Below are positions 7,225 through 48,695 of a stretch of 64,000 nucleotides of DNA, piece by piece. The translations under genes and the position numbers were made by a program. This DNA comes from Candidatus Latescibacterota bacterium (lineage in GTDB: Bacteria; Latescibacterota; UBA2968; UBA8231), in NCBI GenBank assembly GCA_965197905.1, contig CBDAOB010000003.1, forward strand, positions 32,001-96,000. The letters run 5' to 3'. The notes under the pieces were generated by a model. The model was not told the DNA's origin and searched no databases. It worked only from the letters and a program-made list of their open reading frames with translations. Within the stretch, counting starts at the first letter, position 1, and every line of letters starts with the position of its first letter.

Positions 7225-8763
7225 ATGCACAACGTCGACGACGTCCGACAGTTCGACAGTGCGCTCAAGAAGCGCATCAGCGGTTTCCGCGAGAAGCTCG
7301 CCGATTGGCTGGCGCCAAACCGCCTGACTCTCGCGGAAGCGCGTGTACAGAAGGTGCTGATCCCGATGGTGGGCGTCTACACGCCGGGATGGCAGGCACT
7401 GCCGGCGTTCTCCTGGGAATTCGTCGAGCTGATCACCAACGAAGGCTTGGTCGGTACCGGCGAATGGGCGGTGGCGCTGGACGACCGCGCAAAATCCTGC
7501 TTGGAGCGACTGCGCCAGAAGCCAGGCGCCAACCTGCTGGACCTCGACCTGGAAGAACCGCTCTACATGGCCTGGTGGGATCTGGCGGGTCAGGTTCTGA
7601 ACAAACCGTTGCAAGATCTTTGGGCCGAGCTCTTCGAGCGCGATTTCGAACCTCCAACCGCGGTGCCGATGGCGGCCTATACCTGGCAACGCTTTCCCGA
7701 TGCCGACGGTAACAACGCTGTCACCTTCGACAGCTGGCCCGGGCACGCGGCCGAGCGGGCGCGCCAGGGTTTTCCCGCCATCAAGGTTTCCATGACCGCC
7801 TACCAGCCGGAAGAGCACGTGGAGCTGGTGCACGCGATCCGTCAGTCAGTCGGGCTGGACACGGCGATCCGCATCGACGCCCACGGCACCTGGAATTACC
7901 AGGAGGCACGCCGGATCCTGCCGCAGCTCGAAGACTGCAATCTGGAATACATCGAACAACCTATGAACTCCTTGCTGCCGCACGCCTTCTATCCTAAAGA
8001 TGAGGCGGCCGTTGGACAATCACCAGAAAAAGGTGGATTCCAGTCCGAATACTACTTTCGCAAGATGACCGACCTGCGGCAGCTGCTGCGAACTCCGCTT
8101 TCTTGTCACTGGTGGACACCGCCCATCGTACATCCGAAAGGTGCCAGCGTCATGTCGAACCGGTGGGAGCCGCATTGGTACATGATGGAGCGCTACGAAG
8201 CCGCCGACGTTTCGGTGCCCGATATCCTGCTGGGACCCTGGGGTCTGTGGCGGGTGACACAGCTGGCGAAGTTCATGGGCATGCACGTCACCGTGCACAG
8301 CAACTTCGAGCTCTGCCTGCAGCTCTCCTTTCGTGCCGCGATGGTGGCGGCGTTGGTTTACGAATCCGAGAGCGCCGGACTCTACATGGGAACGACGCCG
8401 CGACCGTGCCACCCGATCGACAACGAAACGATCCAGGTGAGCGACGACGTCATTGAAGGAGGTCAGTTCGATTGGACCGGCGGGCACCTGCAGCTGACGG
8501 ACAAACCCGGGCACGGTCAGCGGCTGGATCCGGAACGGGTGCAGAAATATCGGTATTCGCCAGAAGCAGTGGCCCCACACCAGGAGTATGCGCGGCAGCT
8601 GTATCGCACATACCTGCTGGATCGTCCGCGCAGGACGAGCCAGTCCGGCTGGCCCAAACCGCCCGGGCCGGAGACCTTCGCGCGCCATGTCTTCCCATAC
8701 TCGGTGAGAGAGATCCTGGGATCCGAGGACGGGCAAGAAGTCGACATGGAGTTGAATCGTTAA
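7225..8763 (+). CDS. Mandelate racemase/muconate lactonizing (enolase superfamily) protein, glucarate-dehydratase-related and divergent
   Basis: ELITNEGLVGTGE, WDLAGQVLNKPL, GFPAIKV, RIDAHGTW, YIEQP, HSNFE, KPGHG motifs. Confidence 0.85.
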   Translation: MHNVDDVRQFDSALKKRISGFREKLADWLAPNRLTLAEARVQKVLIPMVGVYTPGWQALPAFSWEFVELITNEGLVGTGEWAVALDDRAKSCLERLRQKPGANLLDLDLEEPLYMAWWDLAGQVLNKPLQDLWAELFERDFEPPTAVPMAAYTWQRFPDADGNNAVTFDSWPGHAAERARQGFPAIKVSMTAYQPEEHVELVHAIRQSVGLDTAIRIDAHGTWNYQEARRILPQLEDCNLEYIEQPMNSLLPHAFYPKDEAAVGQSPEKGGFQSEYYFRKMTDLRQLLRTPLSCHWWTPPIVHPKGASVMSNRWEPHWYMMERYEAADVSVPDILLGPWGLWRVTQLAKFMGMHVTVHSNFELCLQLSFRAAMVAALVYESESAGLYMGTTPRPCHPIDNETIQVSDDVIEGGQFDWTGGHLQLTDKPGHGQRLDPERVQKYRYSPEAVAPHQEYARQLYRTYLLDRPRRTSQSGWPKPPGPETFARHVFPYSVREILGSEDGQEVDMELNR

Positions 8764-38333: not shown

Positions 38334-38753
38334 GTGATATCGCGTGAGACGAGCCTAAAGAGGATAATTCTGGTGCGCGTGGCACCGGGGGAAGACATTC
38401 TGTTGGGACTGCGAAAGGCCGTAGTCGCTCACGGCATCGTGAACGGTCTCATTTTGACCGGTTTTGGTTCGGTGAGCCATTCTCACTTTCACGTGGTGAT
38501 GAGTAACGAGTTGCCGCCCAAGGAGAGCTACCCAAAGAGCATTCAGCCCCTCGATGTTTGTTCCTTCAACGGTTTCGTACTGGACGGGAGTGTGCATTGC
38601 CACATCGATTTTTCCGACGAGCGCAACGGATTCGGGGGCCATATCGAGGAGGGTACGCTGGCGCTAACCTTCGCGAACATCGCCATCGGCGAGATCGAGG
38701 ATAGCGTCAGCATTGTCGGATGGGACACGATCGCAGAGGAGGAGACTCTGTAG
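38334..38753 (+). CDS. PPC domain (DUF296) protein
   Basis: RVAPGEDIL, GFGS, HCHI, GGH; AGGAGG RBS. Confidence 0.85.
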   Translation: MISRETSLKRIILVRVAPGEDILLGLRKAVVAHGIVNGLILTGFGSVSHSHFHVVMSNELPPKESYPKSIQPLDVCSFNGFVLDGSVHCHIDFSDERNGFGGHIEEGTLALTFANIAIGEIEDSVSIVGWDTIAEEETL

Positions 38754-38772
38754 TGGGAGGGATCGGTTCGCT

Positions 38773-39926
38773 ATGCTGAGTTCGTCCCTCCGTAACCCGA
38801 TCACATTGTTTCGCGTACCCGGTTCGTCGACCCTTCGGATTCTGGGGATCGTGCTGAGTATTCGGCTTCTGGTGGCGATCTGGACCGCCCACACCTCGGG
38901 GACCGCCCCTTTTGACGACGAGTTTGTCAACAGTTGGACTCGATGGGATGCGGAACACTACGTGTTGATTGCGGAAGACGGGTACCGTTCTCCTGACGAG
39001 TCGCCGAGCCGCCTCGAATTCGTCAGCCGATTCCCACCGCTTTTCCCTCTTGCAACCGCCGCCACCCGCGCGATCACGCCTTTATCAACGGCCGCTTCGG
39101 GAATACTGCTCTCGATCACGTTCCTGTTTCTTGGCTCCGTACTGGTCTTTCGCATCAGCTGTACTCTTTTCAAGTCGAGGGAAACAAGCTACTGGAGCGT
39201 ACTGTTTCTCAACCTTTTCCCCACCTCCTACTTTGCCAGCGCTCCATATTCTGAGGCGATGTTCCTGTTTCTCATGGCTCTCTATTATTTCCTATTAGTG
39301 GAAAGAAGACAATTCTTGGGTCCTGCCATTGTGTTCACCGCGATGATTCTAACCCGCTCAGTAGGACCTGTCCTTTATCCTGTTCACATATATTTGTTTT
39401 GGCGCGAAAGTACCAAAGGTCCGAAGGAATGGCTTGGGCTGCTCCTACCCGGAATGACGTTCTTTATGCATCTTGCCGTCGTGCATCTCGTACTCGGTAT
39501 GCCGGGTTATCTGGAATCGACCGAACGATTCAGCATACGTGTGTTCTCCAGGCTTCCTTTCAGCGAGAAACAATAGATGCGATTGATTACTTCATCGACC
39601 ATCCTGGTCACATTCAGAACGCCGATTTCATGTACGGTGTTGGCTACAACGCTCTTTTCATGATGTTGGGCGACAGGCTCTGGTGATCTACGGCCTGCGG
39701 AAACTCGACCGCCTTGTTTAATATTTTCTCGGTGACGCACCTTCTATTTCTCTCTACGATCGGTGTGATGATCAGTGGTCCAAGATTTTTCTTCGTTCAT
39801 CTTCCGGTCTTTTTTATCCTTGCTCGGATCCCATCCCGGTTGGCGAAGGTCGGCATCGCCCTATGCTCGTTGGTGGCGCTACTAGTGTTCTCTGGTCGAT
39901 TTGTGACTGGGCTGTGGACATTCTGA
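38773..39926 (+). pseudogene. GT-C mannosyltransferase-like (PIG-V/GT76-like) membrane protein, disrupted near 39570 and 39670-39715
   Basis: RWDAEHY..IAEDGY, FPPLFP, PTSYF, YSEAMF, LTRSVG, SGPRF; three ORF pieces. Confidence 0.8.
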
Positions 39927-40097
39927 TAGCGGGATCGCGGAGCATCGGTCAGCGTCTCTCCTGCCCGCCGATCCGTCCACAGTTGAGATTTGCGGTTAGC
40001 TTCACTTGATTAGGGGCGCTCCGCCCCCCTTCTTTGAGTGGCCACGCCGTGGTCAACGCGGATCAACAGCAATGCAACCGATGGAGGCAGCGCTTCG

Positions 40098-41354
40098 ATG
40101 GCACACGACATAGCACAGCTGAATGGTGTGAAATACCGGATTCCGGAATCCCCGGTTGCCGTCGTGTGTGTTGACGGCGGCGACCCGGAATATTTCACGG
40201 CTGCGAAGAAAGCAGATGTCATCCCCAACATCGCTCTTTTCATGGAAGAAGGGTTCAGCAGCATCGCTCACTGCGCCATTCCGAGCTTCACATGCCCCAA
40301 CAATATTTCCATCGCGACGGGCGGACCTCCCGAGGTCCATGGGATTTCGGGTAATTTCTATCTGGATCGGCAGACCGGTGAGGCGGTGGTTATGACCGGG
40401 CCCGAGCTGATGCGGTCGCGTACCGTATTCGATGTAGTTTCGAAAGCCGGCGTGAAAACCGTCGTCATCACTGCAAAGGATAAACTGCGTCAGCAGCTCG
40501 GAAAGGACCTGGATGTGAGCGCCGGCAATGCCTGCTTTTCGTCCCAACACGCAGACCGTTGCACGATGGATGAAAACGGCATCGAGCGGGCACTCGACTT
40601 CGTGGGCCAGCCGCTACCTGACATGTACTCGGAGGAATTGTCGCTGTTTGTGCTCGATGCGGGTATCAAGTTTCTCGAGCAAGATGCCCGTCCGGGTCTG
40701 CTGTATTTGTCTCTGACTGATTATGTGCAGCACAAGTATGCTCCGGATCACCCAAAAGCGATCGACTTCTATAAATCGCTGGATGATCGCTTCGCACGCC
40801 TGGTGCAGCTTGGCGCCATCATCGGCTTCGTCGCCGATCACGGGATGAAAGACAAGTGCGCCGCCGACGGCACCTACAACATCGTCTATCTCCAGGATCT
40901 TCTGGACGAGCGTTTTGGAGCGGGCAATACCAAGGTCATCTGCCCGATTACCGATGCATTTGTTGGCCATCACGGATCACTCGGCGGTTTCGTTCGCGTC
41001 CATTGTTTCGATGGCGCTCCTGTGCAGGATGTGGTCGACTTCATTCGACCAATCGAGGGCATCGATGAAGTGCTGGAGCGCGGGGCGGCGGCGACCCGGT
41101 TCGAGCTTCCGTTCGATCTCGAGGCCGATGTCGTCGTGATTTCCAGTGAGAGTTACTGTGTCGGCATGGGACGCGACGATCACGATCTCGCCGATCTGAA
41201 CGGGGAGCGCCTGCGGTCACACGGCGGCATTTCCGAGCGTGACGTGCCTTTCGTGATCAGTCGGCCTCTCAACGCGGAATACCTTGCCCGAGCGCAGTCG
41301 GAGCAGCTGAAAAACTACCACATTTTCGACTTTGCGATAAACGGCACGGCTTGA
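40098..41354 (+). CDS. phnA: Phosphonoacetate hydrolase
   Basis: VVCVDG, PSFTCPNNISIATG (Thr nucleophile), HGISGNFY, TAKDKLR, YSEELS, DYVQHK, ADHGM, VICPITD, HHGSLG, RSHGG. Confidence 0.93.
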   Translation: MAHDIAQLNGVKYRIPESPVAVVCVDGGDPEYFTAAKKADVIPNIALFMEEGFSSIAHCAIPSFTCPNNISIATGGPPEVHGISGNFYLDRQTGEAVVMTGPELMRSRTVFDVVSKAGVKTVVITAKDKLRQQLGKDLDVSAGNACFSSQHADRCTMDENGIERALDFVGQPLPDMYSEELSLFVLDAGIKFLEQDARPGLLYLSLTDYVQHKYAPDHPKAIDFYKSLDDRFARLVQLGAIIGFVADHGMKDKCAADGTYNIVYLQDLLDERFGAGNTKVICPITDAFVGHHGSLGGFVRVHCFDGAPVQDVVDFIRPIEGIDEVLERGAAATRFELPFDLEADVVVISSESYCVGMGRDDHDLADLNGERLRSHGGISERDVPFVISRPLNAEYLARAQSEQLKNYHIFDFAINGTA

Positions 41355-41373
41355 TCAGCAAGGAGTCGGACTC

Positions 41374-42471
41374 ATGTCACAACGCACCGCGCGTGCAGCC
41401 GTTTACGATGCCCCGAACACGCCATTCGCGATCAGGAACTATCCTCTGAGAGACGTGCATCCTGATGAGGTTTTGGTCCGGGTCGTGATGTCGACGATTT
41501 GCCGGTCCGACATCCATTCGTACCACGGCCATCGGCCGAACCCGTGCCCCGGGATTCTCGGGCACGAGATCATCGGGGTCATCGACCAGCTCGGGGCGGA
41601 CATCGAACGCGACATGCGGGGCGATCCGCTCGCCGTCGGAGACCGGATCACCTGGACGGAATATTTCCATCATGGCGAGTCCTACTATCGCGATGTCCAT
41701 GACATGCCGCAGAAATCGCATGGGGTCAGAAAATATGGGCACGACCTGGTGGAAGAGGATCCACATTTTCTCGGCGGGTTTGCGGAGTATTGTTACGTCG
41801 TGCCGGGAACCGGCATCTTGAAACTCCCTGAAGAACTGAGCGACGAAGAGGCGACACCGATCAATTGCGGTGTCGCGACCATGGTTTGCGTCACCGAGGC
41901 AACGCAGATTCAGATGGGAGATGTCGTCGCGATCCAGGGACTCGGACTCTTGGGGCTCTACGGATGCGCGATGGCCAAGTCCCGTGGGGCACGTCTGGTG
42001 ATCGGGCTCGATGCGGTCGCGGATCGCCTCGCGGCGGCCAAAAAATTCGGTGCAGACGTCGTCATCGACATATCGGGCCGCGAAGAGGATGACATCGTTG
42101 CTCAGGTGCGCGAGTTGGCGCCGCCCGATGGCGTCGATGCCGTGATCGAGGTTTGTGGTGCTCCAGCCGCAGTCCCGGCAGGAATGAAGATGTTGCGCAT
42201 CGGCGGGCGTTACACGCTTGCCGGTCTGGTCAACCCCGATGCCCACGTCACGGTCGATGCCAATGTGTTTGTGAAGAAGTGGATCACGCTGCGGGGCATC
42301 CACAACTACCACCCGCGGCACCTGATCCAGGCGCTGGACTTCGTCGTGGCCAACCGGGAGCGATTCCCGTTCAAGGACATCGTCGATTCAAAATTCAAGC
42401 TCGATGATCTCGACGAGGCCTTCAAGCGGGCGTCCGCACGCTCGGTGCTGCGCGCCGCGATAGTACCGTAA
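41374..42471 (+). CDS. Zinc-binding alcohol dehydrogenase, phosphonate-catabolism-associated type
   Basis: ICRSDIH, GHE, KYGH, GGFAEY, NCGVAT, GLGLLG, GIHNYHP. Confidence 0.9.
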   Translation: MSQRTARAAVYDAPNTPFAIRNYPLRDVHPDEVLVRVVMSTICRSDIHSYHGHRPNPCPGILGHEIIGVIDQLGADIERDMRGDPLAVGDRITWTEYFHHGESYYRDVHDMPQKSHGVRKYGHDLVEEDPHFLGGFAEYCYVVPGTGILKLPEELSDEEATPINCGVATMVCVTEATQIQMGDVVAIQGLGLLGLYGCAMAKSRGARLVIGLDAVADRLAAAKKFGADVVIDISGREEDDIVAQVRELAPPDGVDAVIEVCGAPAAVPAGMKMLRIGGRYTLAGLVNPDAHVTVDANVFVKKWITLRGIHNYHPRHLIQALDFVVANRERFPFKDIVDSKFKLDDLDEAFKRASARSVLRAAIVP

Positions 42472-42485
42472 GAGGATCGCTATTC

Positions 42486-43943
42486 ATGCCAGCAGAAACG
42501 CCTGATCTCGACTTCAAGCCAAAGGGACTGTTCATCGGTGGAGAATGGATAAAGGCCGGCTCCGGCCAGACCATTACTACGATCAACCCCTCAAACGGTG
42601 ACGTGCTCGGCGAAGTGCCGCTTGCCAATGAGGTCGATGTTGACAAGGCTGTCACAAGCGCCAAGGAGGCGTTTCCGGCATGGTCGGCTTTGCCCGTCGC
42701 GAAACGTCCCGAATATCTCCTGCGTCTTGCTCAAGCGATCGACGAAAATGCCGAACTTCTGGCGCTGATGGATGCCGTGGACAGTGGCAACGCGGTCTCC
42801 GGGATGCGCGCCGACATGAAATGGACGGCCGACACTTTCCGATACTTCGCCGGCCTGGTCACCGAGATGAAGGGCGAGACCCTGTCACGCGAGCCCGGCC
42901 ATCTCAACCTGACCTTGCGCCAACCCTACGGCGTGGTTGCCAAGATCAATCCCTTCAATCACCCCTTCCGTTTCTGCGCCGAAAAGGCGGCGTCGGCGCT
43001 GGCCGCCGGAAATACCGTTGTCATCAAAGGACCGGAACAAGCCCCGCTCTCCAGTCTGAAGCTAGGCGAGCTCTGCCAAGAGATTTTCCCGCCTGGCGTC
43101 GTCAATATCGTCACGGGGGACGGTCTGACAGGTTCGGCAATGGTGCGACACAAGGACGTACCTCGCATCGGGTTTGTGGGTTCAGTCGAGACGGGGCGAA
43201 TTATCGCTCGCGAAGCGGCCGAGGGACTCAAGGAGGTCACGCTGGAGCTGGGTGGAAAGAACCCTATCATCATTTTTCCTGACGCCGACCCAAACGAGGC
43301 GGCCGCCACGGTCGTAAAGGCGATGAACATGAATCGTCAGGGACAGTCGTGCTCGTCGACATCACGGGTGCTCGTGCATGAATCGCTGCACGACAAGGTG
43401 AGGGCCGAGCTCGTCAAAGTGGCGTCGGCGATTCCGATCGGTCTTCCATGGCTTGAAGGTGCTGAAATGGGACCGCTCGTTTCCCAGCAACAGTACAACA
43501 GGGTGCTGCGATATATCGAATATGGGCATGCGGATGGCGCCACGCTGCTGACTGGCGGCGGTTCGCCCGATGATCCGGACCTCAAGAGGGGATTCTTCGT
43601 AGCGCCTACGGTGTTCGACGGCGTGACACCGCAGATGCGCATCGCCAGCGAGGAGATCTTCGGTCCGGTCATGTCGATCATGGGCTGGACCGATTTCGAC
43701 GAGATGATCGAAGTCGCAAACGGTGTCATGTACGGGCTGACTGCGTCTATCGTAACCAACGACTTCGGTGCGGCGATGCGAGCGGCCGAACGGGTGGAAG
43801 CGGGCTACGTCTGGATCAATTCATCCGGCCGCTATCTGGGCGCTCCCTATGGGGGCTGGAAACAGAGTGGTATCGGTAAAGAAGAATCCTTCGAGGAGCT
43901 CCTGAGCTACACACGCCTGAAGAATGTGAACATGCGCTGGTAA
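42486..43943 (+). CDS. NAD(P)-dependent aldehyde dehydrogenase
   Basis: PFNHP, FVGS, LELGGK (Glu), GQSC (Cys), EEIFGP, YGGWKQSG. Confidence 0.95.
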   Translation: MPAETPDLDFKPKGLFIGGEWIKAGSGQTITTINPSNGDVLGEVPLANEVDVDKAVTSAKEAFPAWSALPVAKRPEYLLRLAQAIDENAELLALMDAVDSGNAVSGMRADMKWTADTFRYFAGLVTEMKGETLSREPGHLNLTLRQPYGVVAKINPFNHPFRFCAEKAASALAAGNTVVIKGPEQAPLSSLKLGELCQEIFPPGVVNIVTGDGLTGSAMVRHKDVPRIGFVGSVETGRIIAREAAEGLKEVTLELGGKNPIIIFPDADPNEAAATVVKAMNMNRQGQSCSSTSRVLVHESLHDKVRAELVKVASAIPIGLPWLEGAEMGPLVSQQQYNRVLRYIEYGHADGATLLTGGGSPDDPDLKRGFFVAPTVFDGVTPQMRIASEEIFGPVMSIMGWTDFDEMIEVANGVMYGLTASIVTNDFGAAMRAAERVEAGYVWINSSGRYLGAPYGGWKQSGIGKEESFEELLSYTRLKNVNMRW

Positions 43944-43994
43944 CAAGCTGGCGCGGAGATGAACTCCAGCCAATCGAGAGGAGCCCGAAACAAG

Positions 43995-44966
43995 ATGGCC
44001 GAATCCATTCACTATCGCGGCAGGCTTGAAGCGTACTGCCTGGCCCAGCAGGAGTTCACGCTCGAGCTCGTCGACGCGACGTTGCGGGCTTACCCGCCGG
44101 CCCTGCCAGAACCGCCGCCGCGACGGCTGGCATTACAGCTGCTGGATCATGTGCTGCACGAGGAACCCGCCGCGAGCAAGCCGTGGCTCCAAGCCTTCCA
44201 CCACCGCCGCATAGCCGCCGCCGCCGACGACATCGAAGCGACGCTCGTCCGTTCGGGTGGTGCGGTGTGGAAGCTCTACGACCATGGCTTCGTCGTGCGC
44301 ACCCCGGAAGTGACGCTGGAGTTCGACCTCACGCGGGGTCACTCTGCCGGCGTCCCTGCTTTCGCCGTGGCGGATGAGGTGCTCGACCGGATCGCCGACG
44401 CCTGCGACGTGCTGTTCATCAGCCACCTCCACGAGGATCACGCCGACCCTCACGTCGCAGCCCGTTTCCTCGTCCAGAACAAGCCGGTGGTCGCGCCGCC
44501 ACAGGTGCTGGAAGAGGAACCGTTCCACGAGCGCATCACTCACCTTCCGCGCGAGCCCCACGTGCTGCACGAGCTGTCGGTGCACGGTGGAGAGGTGCTC
44601 CTGCGGGTCGCCGCCAATCCGGGTCACCAGGGCATCAAAACCGAGAACAACCACCATGTGGTGGTCGCGCCCTGTGGATTCACCGTGGTCCACACCGGCG
44701 ACCAGGGCTATACAGACGAACTCGACTGGTTGGACAGCGCCCACGAGCACTACCGGGTCGACCTGTTGCTGCCTAACTCCTGGGTGCCCGACTTGCTGGG
44801 GGTGGTGGCCGCATACGATCCGCGCTTCATCGTCCCAGGCCACGAGAACGAGCTGGGCCACGACGTCTCCCACCGCGAGCCCTACTGGCTTTCCTACGTG
44901 CGCATGACGACGAACGCCGAGAAGCTTCTGGTGATGACCTGGGGCGAACGCTTTGACGTGCCATAG
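43995..44966 (+). CDS. Metallo-beta-lactamase-fold hydrolase (UlaG-like)
   Basis: ISHLHEDH (HxHxDH), HTGD, VPGHENE. Confidence 0.85.
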   Translation: MAESIHYRGRLEAYCLAQQEFTLELVDATLRAYPPALPEPPPRRLALQLLDHVLHEEPAASKPWLQAFHHRRIAAAADDIEATLVRSGGAVWKLYDHGFVVRTPEVTLEFDLTRGHSAGVPAFAVADEVLDRIADACDVLFISHLHEDHADPHVAARFLVQNKPVVAPPQVLEEEPFHERITHLPREPHVLHELSVHGGEVLLRVAANPGHQGIKTENNHHVVVAPCGFTVVHTGDQGYTDELDWLDSAHEHYRVDLLLPNSWVPDLLGVVAAYDPRFIVPGHENELGHDVSHREPYWLSYVRMTTNAEKLLVMTWGERFDVP

Positions 44967-44975
44967 AGGACAACC

Positions 44976-46271
44976 ATGACTACCGAGCTTGCTGCGCATA
45001 TCCTACAGACCCCTCTTTGCGACACCCACGAACATCTGCGCAAAGAGCACACCTGGATCGATGAGGGACCCGACATCCTCCAGGATCTCTTCGGCAACTA
45101 CGTTGCGGCCGACTTGAAAACGGCAGGTGCCAACACCGCGGCTATCGAGCGTCTGCTACACAAGCCAGAGGCACCGGTGGGCGACCGCTTTCGCGATATC
45201 CAGAGTGCGTGGCATGCCACCCAGTTTACCGGCTACGGCGAAGCGGTCCGGCTGATTGCAAGCAAGATATACGGACTGGAGGAACTGACAGCCGGTGGTC
45301 TGGACCAGGCGCAGACGCGATTGACCGACCTGCGCAGACCGGGAGGGCGTTACGATCTGCTCAAGAACGTGGCGAATCTGGACCACATCCAGACGGATGA
45401 CGGCTGCTGGCCTTGTCTGCCCGATCGCTCGGGCTTGGACTTTTTCTTCTACGATATCTCCTGGGCGGGATTCTGCAACGGCCACATCGACCCTGAGGCT
45501 ATCGAAGCGGAAACGTCGGTTGCCGTCAACGATCTGAATTCGCTCGACAAATCCATGGCCGCCATTTTTGCGAAGTACGCGTCGGTCGCCATCGCCGTCA
45601 AAGCCCAGCACGCCTACAATAGAACCCTCCTTTGGGAGGAGCGAACGCGAGAAGATGCATCTCAGGCACTAGACGCCGTCCTGAGCGAAGGCCCCGAAAA
45701 CGTACCCGAAGCAACACGTCTTTGCCTGGGTGACTGGTGCTGGGCAAGAGGAATCGAGCTGGCAGTCGAGCACGACCTCCCGTTCAAGATCCACACCGGA
45801 TATTACGCCGGCAACGATCGCATGCCGGTGGACCGGATCCGCGCCGGCAACATGTGTCCTCTGCTGGCGAAATATCTGGACGCCCGTTTTGTGCTCATGC
45901 ATATCGCCTACCCGTACAACAACGAGCTGATCGCCATCGCCAAACATTACCCCAACGTCTGGGTAGACCTATGCTGGGCGTGGTCCATCGATCCTTTCAG
46001 TTCCGCGGATTTTGTCCGGCGATTCATCCACACGGTTCCAGCGAACAAGCTTTTCGGTTTCGGCGGCGACACGGGATGGCCCACGAGTTCGGCCGCGTAT
46101 GCAATCCAGATGAGACACTGGTTCACGCGGGCGATGGAGAGTGAGGTTGCAGAAGGCTTATTGACCGAGCAACAGGCAAAGCGGGTTGCATCTCGAATCA
46201 TGCACGACAATCAGTACGACTGCTTCGATCTGGAGGGGACACGCCGCAACATCGCCGAAGCCGCAGCCTGA
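44976..46271 (+). CDS. Amidohydrolase-2/uronate-isomerase-like metal-dependent hydrolase
   Basis: DTHEH, KAQHAY, KIHTG, VLMH, PNVWVD, FGGD. Confidence 0.88.
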   Translation: MTTELAAHILQTPLCDTHEHLRKEHTWIDEGPDILQDLFGNYVAADLKTAGANTAAIERLLHKPEAPVGDRFRDIQSAWHATQFTGYGEAVRLIASKIYGLEELTAGGLDQAQTRLTDLRRPGGRYDLLKNVANLDHIQTDDGCWPCLPDRSGLDFFFYDISWAGFCNGHIDPEAIEAETSVAVNDLNSLDKSMAAIFAKYASVAIAVKAQHAYNRTLLWEERTREDASQALDAVLSEGPENVPEATRLCLGDWCWARGIELAVEHDLPFKIHTGYYAGNDRMPVDRIRAGNMCPLLAKYLDARFVLMHIAYPYNNELIAIAKHYPNVWVDLCWAWSIDPFSSADFVRRFIHTVPANKLFGFGGDTGWPTSSAAYAIQMRHWFTRAMESEVAEGLLTEQQAKRVASRIMHDNQYDCFDLEGTRRNIAEAAA

Positions 46272-47438: not shown

Positions 47439-48695
47439 CCCCTATTCCCCATATTGAACCTGAAAACCGCTTTTCAAAGGTGCCATAAGATGTTATAGGC
47501 AATATAATAACGATTGTTTCTGGCGATGAATATGGGTCATCCCGAGGGTGAAAGGATGAGAATGGGTTTTGATGGTGGAATCAAGCTTGAATTTCATGGT
47601 GCAAAAGTGACCTCTGACGGGGGTCTTTTAGCGTATCGTGAACTTGATGATGCGCTGGGATTATTCGATGCCGTTTCTACGGCTTTATCGGACCAACGTA
47701 CTGGCCGTAATATCCAACATGCGATGGCTACCTTATTACGCCAATCCATTTATAGCCGTCTTGCGGGGTATGAAGATGTCAATGACGCCGAGCGTCTCTC
47801 GGTTGATCCTGTCATGAGAGCGCTCACCGGGGAAAAGGGCGCCCCACAAACAGGCCGCCAGCGTCAACACGATGGGGCGTTTTGAAACTAAGATACTGAC
47901 TCCGCACGAGAATCTCGGAAACTTGTCAGATATTAATGGCAAGTGGGTTCAAAAAGCGATGGGTAAGACCCCTCATCAGCGAATCATTCTGGACCTGGAC
48001 AGTTCAGAGAGCCCGGTACATGGCGAGCAGGAGGGATCAGCTTACAACGGCCATTTCGGGTGTACCTGTTTCCATCCGCTGTTCTGCTTCAATCAGTTCG
48101 GGGATTGTGAAGGCGTCCTGCTGCGCTCTGGTAATGTTCACAGCGCTGATCGTTGGAAGGAAGTTCTGCAACCGATCGTCAAGAGATACGAGAACAAAAA
48201 GAATAGGAAATACTTTCGTGGCGATGCGGCCTTCGCCAAACCAGAAATCTATGAATACCTGGAGGGAAACGGCCTCTTGTATGCCATCCGGATGCCTGCC
48301 AACCAACTCCTCCACGAGAAAATACGACCCCTGCTGACTCGACCGGTGGGCCGACCACCCGAAAAGCCGATAATCTGCTGGTCCGAGTTCAGCTATCAGG
48401 CCGGCAGTTGGGATCGACCGCGGTGGCGATAGACCAGACGTTATTTGCCGAGATCTTGGCCCGAATCAAGCGTTTACGCAATTATTCTGTCTAGAACATC
48501 ACTTTCCAAAGTGAAGCAATGGATACCTGTCTCTAATCGGTGAATGTGAACATGGAGATCATGATAATTCGGAAAAACAAGGCCGTTCTTAATGCAGAAA
48601 TTTGTCCGTGGAGCAAAGTGGACGGCCATTCCTTATTATCAAACAGAGTCGAGTTCAATCTAAACCCCAACTGATTTTGATATGGGGAATACCAG
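47439..48695 (+). mobile_element. IS1380-family insertion sequence, internally deleted
   Basis: Terminal inverted repeat core TATTCCCCATAT (47443-47454) / ATATGGGGAATA (48680-48691); lower GC than flanks; contains IS1380 transposase fragments; no target duplication seen. Confidence 0.85.
47526..48494 (+). pseudogene. IS1380 family DDE transposase, frameshifted and internally deleted
   Basis: VTSDGGLLAYRELDDALG, RQSIYSRLAGYEDVNDA, LDLDSSESP.HGEQEG, RGDAAFA; jumps from WDRPR straight to the C-terminal VAIDQTLFAEILARIKRLR. Confidence 0.9.

Follow-up and report, generated by a model that had tools for sequence, protein, structure and literature searches.

A phnA-alcohol dehydrogenase-aldehyde dehydrogenase cassette predicted to degrade 2-hydroxyethylphosphonate with an aldehyde dehydrogenase other than PhnY

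The stretch of DNA analysed here, referred to below as the window, comprises 64,000 nucleotides of a Candidatus Latescibacterota genome (contig CBDAOB010000003.1 of assembly GCA_965197905.1, positions 32,001 to 96,000) and carries three adjacent genes on the forward strand which probably together form a pathway for the breakdown of the naturally occurring 2-hydroxyethylphosphonate (HEP). These are phnA, encoding a phosphonoacetate hydrolase of 418 amino acids (40098..41354, a TIGR02335 match); a gene for a Zn/NAD alcohol dehydrogenase (ADH) of the pbfG type with 365 amino acids, whose best family is TIGR03366 and which is predicted to be a HEP dehydrogenase (41374..42471); and a gene for a non-PhnY aldehyde dehydrogenase (ALDH, PF00171) of 485 amino acids, predicted to act on phosphonoacetaldehyde (42486..43943). 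All three open reading frames (ORFs) are intact and co-oriented, a purine-rich stretch resembling a Shine-Dalgarno sequence precedes each of them, and their coordinates confirm the intergenic gaps of 19 and 14 bp for which a preliminary description of this DNA had called the triplet tightly spaced. The same description had reported phnW, phnX and C-P lyase genes as missing from the window, and this extends to the entire host genome (6.69 Mb, 91.16% complete), where nothing over cut-off was found for PhnY, PhnW, PhnX or phosphoenolpyruvate (PEP) mutase and PhnJ gave no match at all. With no PEP mutase over cut-off in the genome, a biosynthetic role for the cassette is unlikely.

Conservation of the gene order

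Relatives of the ADH were collected from GTDB genomes and 294 were obtained, the best 80 of which are the loci considered below. The order phnA-ADH-new ALDH is present in 62 of these 80, a count which takes in genes truncated by contig ends, several phnA or ALDH genes with frameshifts and a single locus in which an inserted gene precedes the ADH. Because the same order recurs to this extent, the arrangement is not due to chance, and the synteny survey suggested in the preliminary description thus speaks for a conserved triplet. The other 18 loci comprise ten with the ADH alone, three with a true PhnY, two with the new ALDH without phnA, two with ALDH fragments and one with the ALDH at a contig edge. 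Where true PhnY is present (L052, L069 and L078; 740–754 bits) it occupies the slot of the ALDH, and the neighbouring ADHs nest in the same ADH clade. Five of the ten lone-ADH loci, belonging to four genomes, were checked, the new ALDH being found in none of these genomes and phnA-phnY elsewhere in three of them. The titles of the cassette loci name Alpha-, Beta- and Gammaproteobacteria, Spirochaetia, Methylomirabilota, Nitrospiraceae, Gemmatimonadetes and Latescibacterota, and the nearest named locus (L001, ADH 98% identical) is likewise from Candidatus Latescibacterota. ABC transporter genes of the phnCDE type recur beside the cassette in 44–47 loci, a LysR gene whose best match is TIGR03339 in 26, and a gene of the phosphoglycolate-phosphatase type lies near it in seven.

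A survey from the side of the ALDH, covering 401 genomes of one family, gave nine that hold the clade (66–68% identity), followed by a gap down to 52%. All nine of these ALDHs have phnA and the ADH upstream, and five of them are also in the ADH set. Neither phnA nor the ADH was found within about 1.5 kb at any of the 21 fetched loci of sister ALDHs (49–52% identity). Among 60 metagenome loci, 17 carry an ALDH at least 80% identical to that of the window; the ADH is present in all eight with enough upstream DNA, the other nine being too short, and no phnA or ADH was found in the 43 distant ALDH loci. Plasmid records contained no ADH or ALDH at above 60% identity.

The three enzymes and their relatives

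PhnA of the window passes the curated model TIGR02335 with a score of 532.6 (cut-off 407.55), and its top matches in the PDB are the PhnA entries 3szy and 1ei6. When aligned to 3szy, its residues D26, T65, D208, H212, D247, H248, H291, H292 and H375, which we take to be the metal ligands and the nucleophile, are identical in eight PhnA proteins that adjoin PhnY. The predicted nucleophile Thr65 is followed by Cys, not Asn, a Thr-Cys subtype seen in 42 of 60 sequences from the cassette set. Both subtypes are found with the new ALDH, the canonical Thr-Asn form accompanying it in 18 loci, and the Thr-Cys form also accompanies true PhnY in two (L069 and L078); this cross-pairing argues for one common product, phosphonoacetate.

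The second gene has to be read against a recent article, cited here as far as its text is available, in which Piazza et al. (Protein Sci 2026, PMC13576164, September 2026) named a PF00107 enzyme PbfG. The enzyme from Cellulosimicrobium (C. protaetiae) converts HEP to phosphonoacetaldehyde in vitro with a kcat/KM of 88,500 per M per s, the addition of PhnX leads to the release of inorganic phosphate (Pi) from HEP, and pbfG clusters with phnX or with phnY-phnA, often without phnW. In the available text, NAD-dependent HEP oxidation is demonstrated for just the C. protaetiae enzyme, the equilibrium lies on the HEP side, the reductase direction is faster in vitro, and the assays do not cover the PhnY-PhnA branch with HEP. 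A sulfonate route starting from isethionate was considered and rejected, as isethionate is a roughly 10,000-fold worse substrate of PbfG (PMC13576164) and the partner genes are phosphonate genes.

Gene 2 matches PF00107 with 89.3 bits and PF08240 with 59.8 bits, and comparison with TIGR03366, which the preliminary description had proposed as a check, shows that this is indeed its best NCBIfam family, at 287.5 bits (cut-off 328.1), the next family scoring 130. On the same model its clade relatives score 277–306, non-phosphonate control ADHs 211–216 and a PbfG listed in the article 359.6. The top plasmid match, WP_284687237 of Chondrinema litorale, stands beside a phosphonatase-like gene, passes TIGR03366 and is given as a PbfG in Table S2 of PMC13576164. 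The predicted Zn ligands (Cys45, His66, Cys166) and HEP contacts (Ser47, Arg56, His124, Asn298) of PbfG (PMC13576164), when their numbering is transferred by spacing without the C. protaetiae sequence, correspond to C43, H64 and C165 and to S45, R54, H123 and N311 of gene 2, all identical in WP_284687237. These residues are kept in 78–79 of 79 clade ADHs (L006, which could not be cleanly translated, was left out) and in all 26 TIGR03366-type proteins, and R54, H123 and N311 are missing from all three non-phosphonate controls.

The structural-Zn lobe holds no Cys in the ADH of the window, and four Cys are found in just one of the 79 clade members; in the available text of PMC13576164 the loss of this site is reported for Bacteroidota PbfG as the only exception (Fig. 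S10 legend). In a quick tree of 39 rows, which came with long-branch warnings, 18 clade rows and 14 PbfG/TIGR03366 rows were joined at a support of 95 with three non-phosphonate ADHs outside. As to genomic clustering, phnA adjoins the ADH and the neighbouring ALDH is not PhnY, PhnY being present in three of the 80 loci of the same clade. We infer from these sequence comparisons that gene 2 encodes a PbfG-type enzyme, a predicted HEP dehydrogenase, belonging to a subclade without the structural-Zn cysteines. The acidic residues D213 of the ADH and E184 of the ALDH are presumed by us to indicate a preference for NAD+.

The product of the third gene, which the preliminary description had set apart from PhnY, scores 231.8 bits on the PhnY model TIGR03250 (cut-off 635.65), reaches no equivalog cut-off and is 28–30% identical to PhnY as against 48–52% to ALDHs that are not associated with phn genes, so its identification as PhnY can be ruled out. 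Its catalytic residues N158, E254 and C289 are all intact, its structure model (predicted local distance difference test score, pLDDT, 93.9) has an ordinary ALDH fold, and in a Foldseek search with this model the ranks listed, up to 48, include no PhnY entry. The nearest non-phn ALDHs, with N-H-P and GQSC motifs, are presumably PhdK-like (2-carboxybenzaldehyde dehydrogenase).

In two drawn trees the cassette ALDHs are nested among non-phn ALDHs, away from PhnY, which forms its own group with a support of 100, and a third tree likewise separates them from PhnY; the tree of 60 rows was a quick tree. In approximately unbiased (AU) tests with 25 rows each, monophyly of the cassette ALDHs with PhnY was not rejected (p=0.078 under LG+G4, p=0.216 under a mixture model). 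A separate recruitment from a non-phn lineage, and not from PhnY, is the favoured explanation of these sequences, and gene 3 is best read as a putative second lineage of phosphonoacetaldehyde dehydrogenases.

Three arginines, R162, R284 and R449, are found in 58, 57 and 58 of the 58 ALDH sequences of the clade, respectively. R449 is present in 11 of 144 other ALDHs, Arg is outside the six commonest residues at position 162 or 284, and the four annotated nearest plasmid ALDHs, with no phn neighbours, have Leu/Met, Trp and His at the three positions. A divergent ALDH that is sister to the cassette clade (P0005) has Arg at positions 162 and 449. The pocket of PhnY is reportedly formed by Arg108, His159, Arg290 and Arg447, and of these the histidine and the last arginine are matched in gene 3 by H159 and R449, W113 and S288 standing at the places of Arg108 and Arg290. 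R449 lies five residues before a conserved Pro, as does Arg447 in PhnY 4I3T with an offset of three residues, and H159, next to the catalytic Asn158, is common to PhnY, the cassette clade and its non-phn sisters. For human ALDH2 we assumed the residue numbering in mapping the tunnel. R162 and R449 align, indirectly via the ALDH2-like protein P0043, with Leu173 and Phe459, which are listed with Phe170 and Trp177 among the tunnel residues of ALDH2 in the available text of PMC10650273. It can be inferred that R162, R284 and R449 may bind the phosphonate group.

In the host family (76 genomes), a PhnY-type gene was found in 33 genomes (10 over cut-off), the new ALDH in six and both in none, a complementarity to be taken as a pattern rather than as a statistical test, since the genomes are kin; pbfG-phnA-phnY stand in a row in 14 of these genomes. 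Out of the 62 cassette genomes 30 were tested, of which 13 have PhnW over cut-off and one has PhnX.

Neighbouring genes and further phosphonate-related loci

No sigma-70-like promoter or terminator-like site was found between the ALDH and the next gene, and two further co-oriented ORFs follow on the forward strand (43959-44966 and 44976-46271) that are not conserved with the triplet. The first, 15 bp past the ALDH, is hydrolase-like, contains an H-x-H-x-D-H motif and matches neither Pfam nor NCBIfam; it is probably a recent insertion, because its GC content is raised (GC3 0.82), a 74% paralogue is present on contig C4 and it is missing from L001. The second is an Amidohydrolase_2 gene that follows the ALDH in L001 alone among the 80 loci. 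Membership of these metallo-hydrolase-like and amidohydrolase genes in the pathway was rejected, as they are found in 0/80 and 1/80 loci, respectively. Upstream of phnA, an ORF resembling PIG-V-type mannosyltransferases (38713-39930, forward strand) has a stop at 39576, its continuation seeming to be out of frame, which points to a possible frameshift. Two overlapping ORFs lie in a low-GC stretch at 47514-48432 on the forward strand and presumably represent a split transposase.

Elsewhere, a phosphonate-binding-family ABC transporter at G000:C2:227719-233327 is probably no phosphonate importer; we take its neighbours to resemble enzymes of selenium metabolites (SenA/SenB-like). Two PhnZ-like HD proteins are encoded at G000:C3:433087-434749 (reverse strand) and G000:C4:1562709-1563239 (forward strand), barely below the TIGR03276 cut-off, the former after a dioxygenase-like gene in an arrangement that recalls the oxidative C-P cleavage by TmpA-TmpB or PhnY*-PhnZ.

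Several loci of other genomes also deserve mention. In G007 and G008 (L180/L181, about 7400–8400), phnW is followed by a 5' fragment of phnA fused to a 3' fragment of phnY, the remnant of a phnA-phnY pair after a deletion, both genomes having retained the new cassette. In G014 (L188:872-14001 with L029), genes for a phnS2-type transporter, pbfA, phnW and a further aminotransferase stand directly upstream of phnDCE-lysR-phnA-ADH-new ALDH, and the true phnY of this genome is solitary, at about 4 Mb from the cassette. An ALDH scoring about 505–511 bits on the PhnY model adjoins a distant PhnA-like hydrolase (28% identity) in G031 and G017 (L168/L169), possibly as a further phosphonate or sulfonate module. 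On a Streptomyces plasmid (L145:3971-9038), a TIGR03366 dehydrogenase over cut-off is accompanied by a phosphonate ABC transporter and a phosphatase of the PhoD family, and neither phnX nor phnA lies within 4 kb.

Proposed route, alternative explanations and known systems

The cassette probably breaks HEP down to acetate and phosphate through the predicted activities of the PbfG-type ADH, the non-PhnY ALDH and PhnA. The ADH would oxidise HEP with NAD+ to phosphonoacetaldehyde, as has been shown for the PbfG homologue (PMC13576164). The ALDH, judging by its slot, its distribution and its residues, would oxidise the aldehyde with NAD+ to phosphonoacetate, and PhnA, by virtue of its family membership, would carry out the established hydrolysis of phosphonoacetate to acetate and Pi. 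Aldehyde oxidation is irreversible in the ALDH enzyme class and, because the equilibrium of the first step favours HEP, would pull the flux forward. From their chemistry, none of the three steps would require O2.

This sequence of reactions had been put forward in the preliminary description and remains the best reading of the locus, but its novelty had been overrated, a pathway of this type being present in PMC13576164. The remark that the exact three-gene module is undemonstrated still holds within the literature searched, the PhnY-PhnA branch not being assayed with HEP in the available text of that article. The phrase 'aldehyde dehydrogenase' is absent from its main text, in which a non-PhnY ALDH is not mentioned, though it may still contain a similar cluster labelled phnY. 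In the literature searched, most subscription papers being beyond reach, no title or listing names a non-PhnY phosphonoacetaldehyde dehydrogenase. With the HEP route already in print, what is new is probably an undescribed ALDH lineage together with a subclade of PbfG beyond the range published so far.

A number of observations weigh against this interpretation. Gene 2 is below the TIGR03366 cut-off and 37% identical to the single alignable PbfG listed in the article, and the residues used in the comparison were placed by spacing. In gene 3, two of the three arginines that are said to bind phosphonate in PhnY are replaced (W113, S288), and the invariant acidic E166 occupies a predicted pocket position. 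The importer and LysR gene usual at the cassette are absent around the triplet of the window and have no close match in the genome, whose sole strong PF12974 match is in an unrelated-looking locus. True PhnY is present elsewhere in six of the 30 tested cassette genomes. In five genomes of the host family that have pbfG-phnA (G133, G193, G198, G200 and G201), no PhnY or new ALDH was found either nearby or in the genome as a whole, so that an ALDH of a generic kind may be enough. Finally, a genome of the same genus (G131, L251:2955-3022) has a clean internal deletion of the ADH with phnA and the ALDH intact.

Some of these points lend themselves to other explanations. The same pathway could operate with an ALDH that is a broad-specificity enzyme or a distant sister of PhnY, not separately specialised, as the five genomes without a dedicated ALDH, the shared His159 and the AU tests would allow; this is improbable in our view, since the best trees either nest the clade in non-phn ALDHs or keep it separate from PhnY, the identities (48–52% against 28–30%) point the same way, and the three arginines hardly vary within the clade whereas R449 is infrequent outside it. 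That the cassette serves another hydroxyalkylphosphonate, for instance a C2-C3 compound bearing an amine or a further hydroxyl group, to which all three proteins are tuned, has a somewhat smaller chance still. All three proteins are indeed variant (the ADH without structural-Zn Cys, Thr-Cys PhnA in 42 of 60, E166 in the ALDH) and a phosphoglycolate-phosphatase-type gene is near seven loci, but in L069 and L078 this ADH clade and the Thr-Cys PhnA accompany true PhnY, the new ALDH is paired with canonical Thr-Asn PhnA in 18 loci, the predicted HEP contacts are kept in 78–79 of 79 clade ADHs, and Bacteroidota PbfG likewise lack the structural Zn site (PMC13576164). It is very improbable that the core of the system is a phnA-ALDH pair scavenging phosphonoacetaldehyde or phosphonoacetate, with an ADH that is dispensable or acts as a reductive aldehyde sink. 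The faster reductase reaction of PbfG (PMC13576164), the loss of the ADH alone in G131 and the arrangement in G014, where a gene for a 2-aminoethylphosphonate transporter, pbfA and phnW immediately precede the cassette, would suit such a core, but the ADH is upstream in 9/9 cases of the 401-genome survey and in 8/8 metagenome loci with enough DNA, and neither PEP mutase nor PhnW was found over cut-off in the host genome as an aldehyde supply.

Returning to HEP breakdown by the three-gene cassette, we lean slightly towards a wider interpretation, in which gene 3 represents a second predicted family of phosphonoacetaldehyde dehydrogenases that arose from non-phosphonate ALDHs, has its own three-arginine phosphonate pocket and converged with PhnY on one position, and in which the cassette, with a PbfG clade that lost the structural Zn, occurs in at least six phylum-level groups of uncultured bacteria from the sea and from soil, below the cut-offs for PhnY and TIGR03366, so that HEP mineralisers are undercounted by surveys based on these cut-offs. 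If this is true, there would be two enzyme solutions for each step from HEP to Pi except that of PhnA, phnA genes seemingly without phnY may belong to complete pathways, and the range of PbfG would widen to Pseudomonadota. Surveys of phnY that screen at 65% identity would miss a protein that is 28–30% identical.

Among known systems, the closest are the pbfG-phnY-phnA clusters (PMC13576164, available text), which share with the cassette a Zn dehydrogenase of PF00107 whose predicted catalytic and HEP-binding residues are the same and whose gene stands by phnA and an ALDH gene, phnW and pbfD being absent. They differ in that the ALDH of the cassette is not PhnY, its ADH is without the structural-Zn cysteines and most of its carriers are Pseudomonadota, which are not represented in Table S2 of the article; the gene order also differs, being phnA-ADH-ALDH in the cassette and pbfG-phnA-phnY in the 14 host-family genomes. 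PhnY itself (TIGR03250; PDB 4I3T-4I3X) resembles gene 3 in its ALDH fold and genomic slot, in the catalytic Asn/Glu/Cys with a His following the Asn, and in an Arg placed five residues ahead of the C-terminal Pro-aromatic-Gly-Gly motif, but is 28–30% identical and has Arg108 and Arg290 where gene 3 has W113 and S288, gene 3 having R162 and R284 instead. The non-phosphonate N-H-P/GQSC ALDHs are the closest relatives of gene 3 (48–52% identity) and are in the same supported tree group, although Leu/Met, Trp and His replace R162, R284 and R449 in them. The PhnW-PhnY-PhnA pathway for 2-aminoethylphosphonate has its last two steps in common with those proposed for the cassette, whereas its entry is by transamination, with a phnW that was not found in the host genome, and that of the cassette would be by alcohol oxidation.

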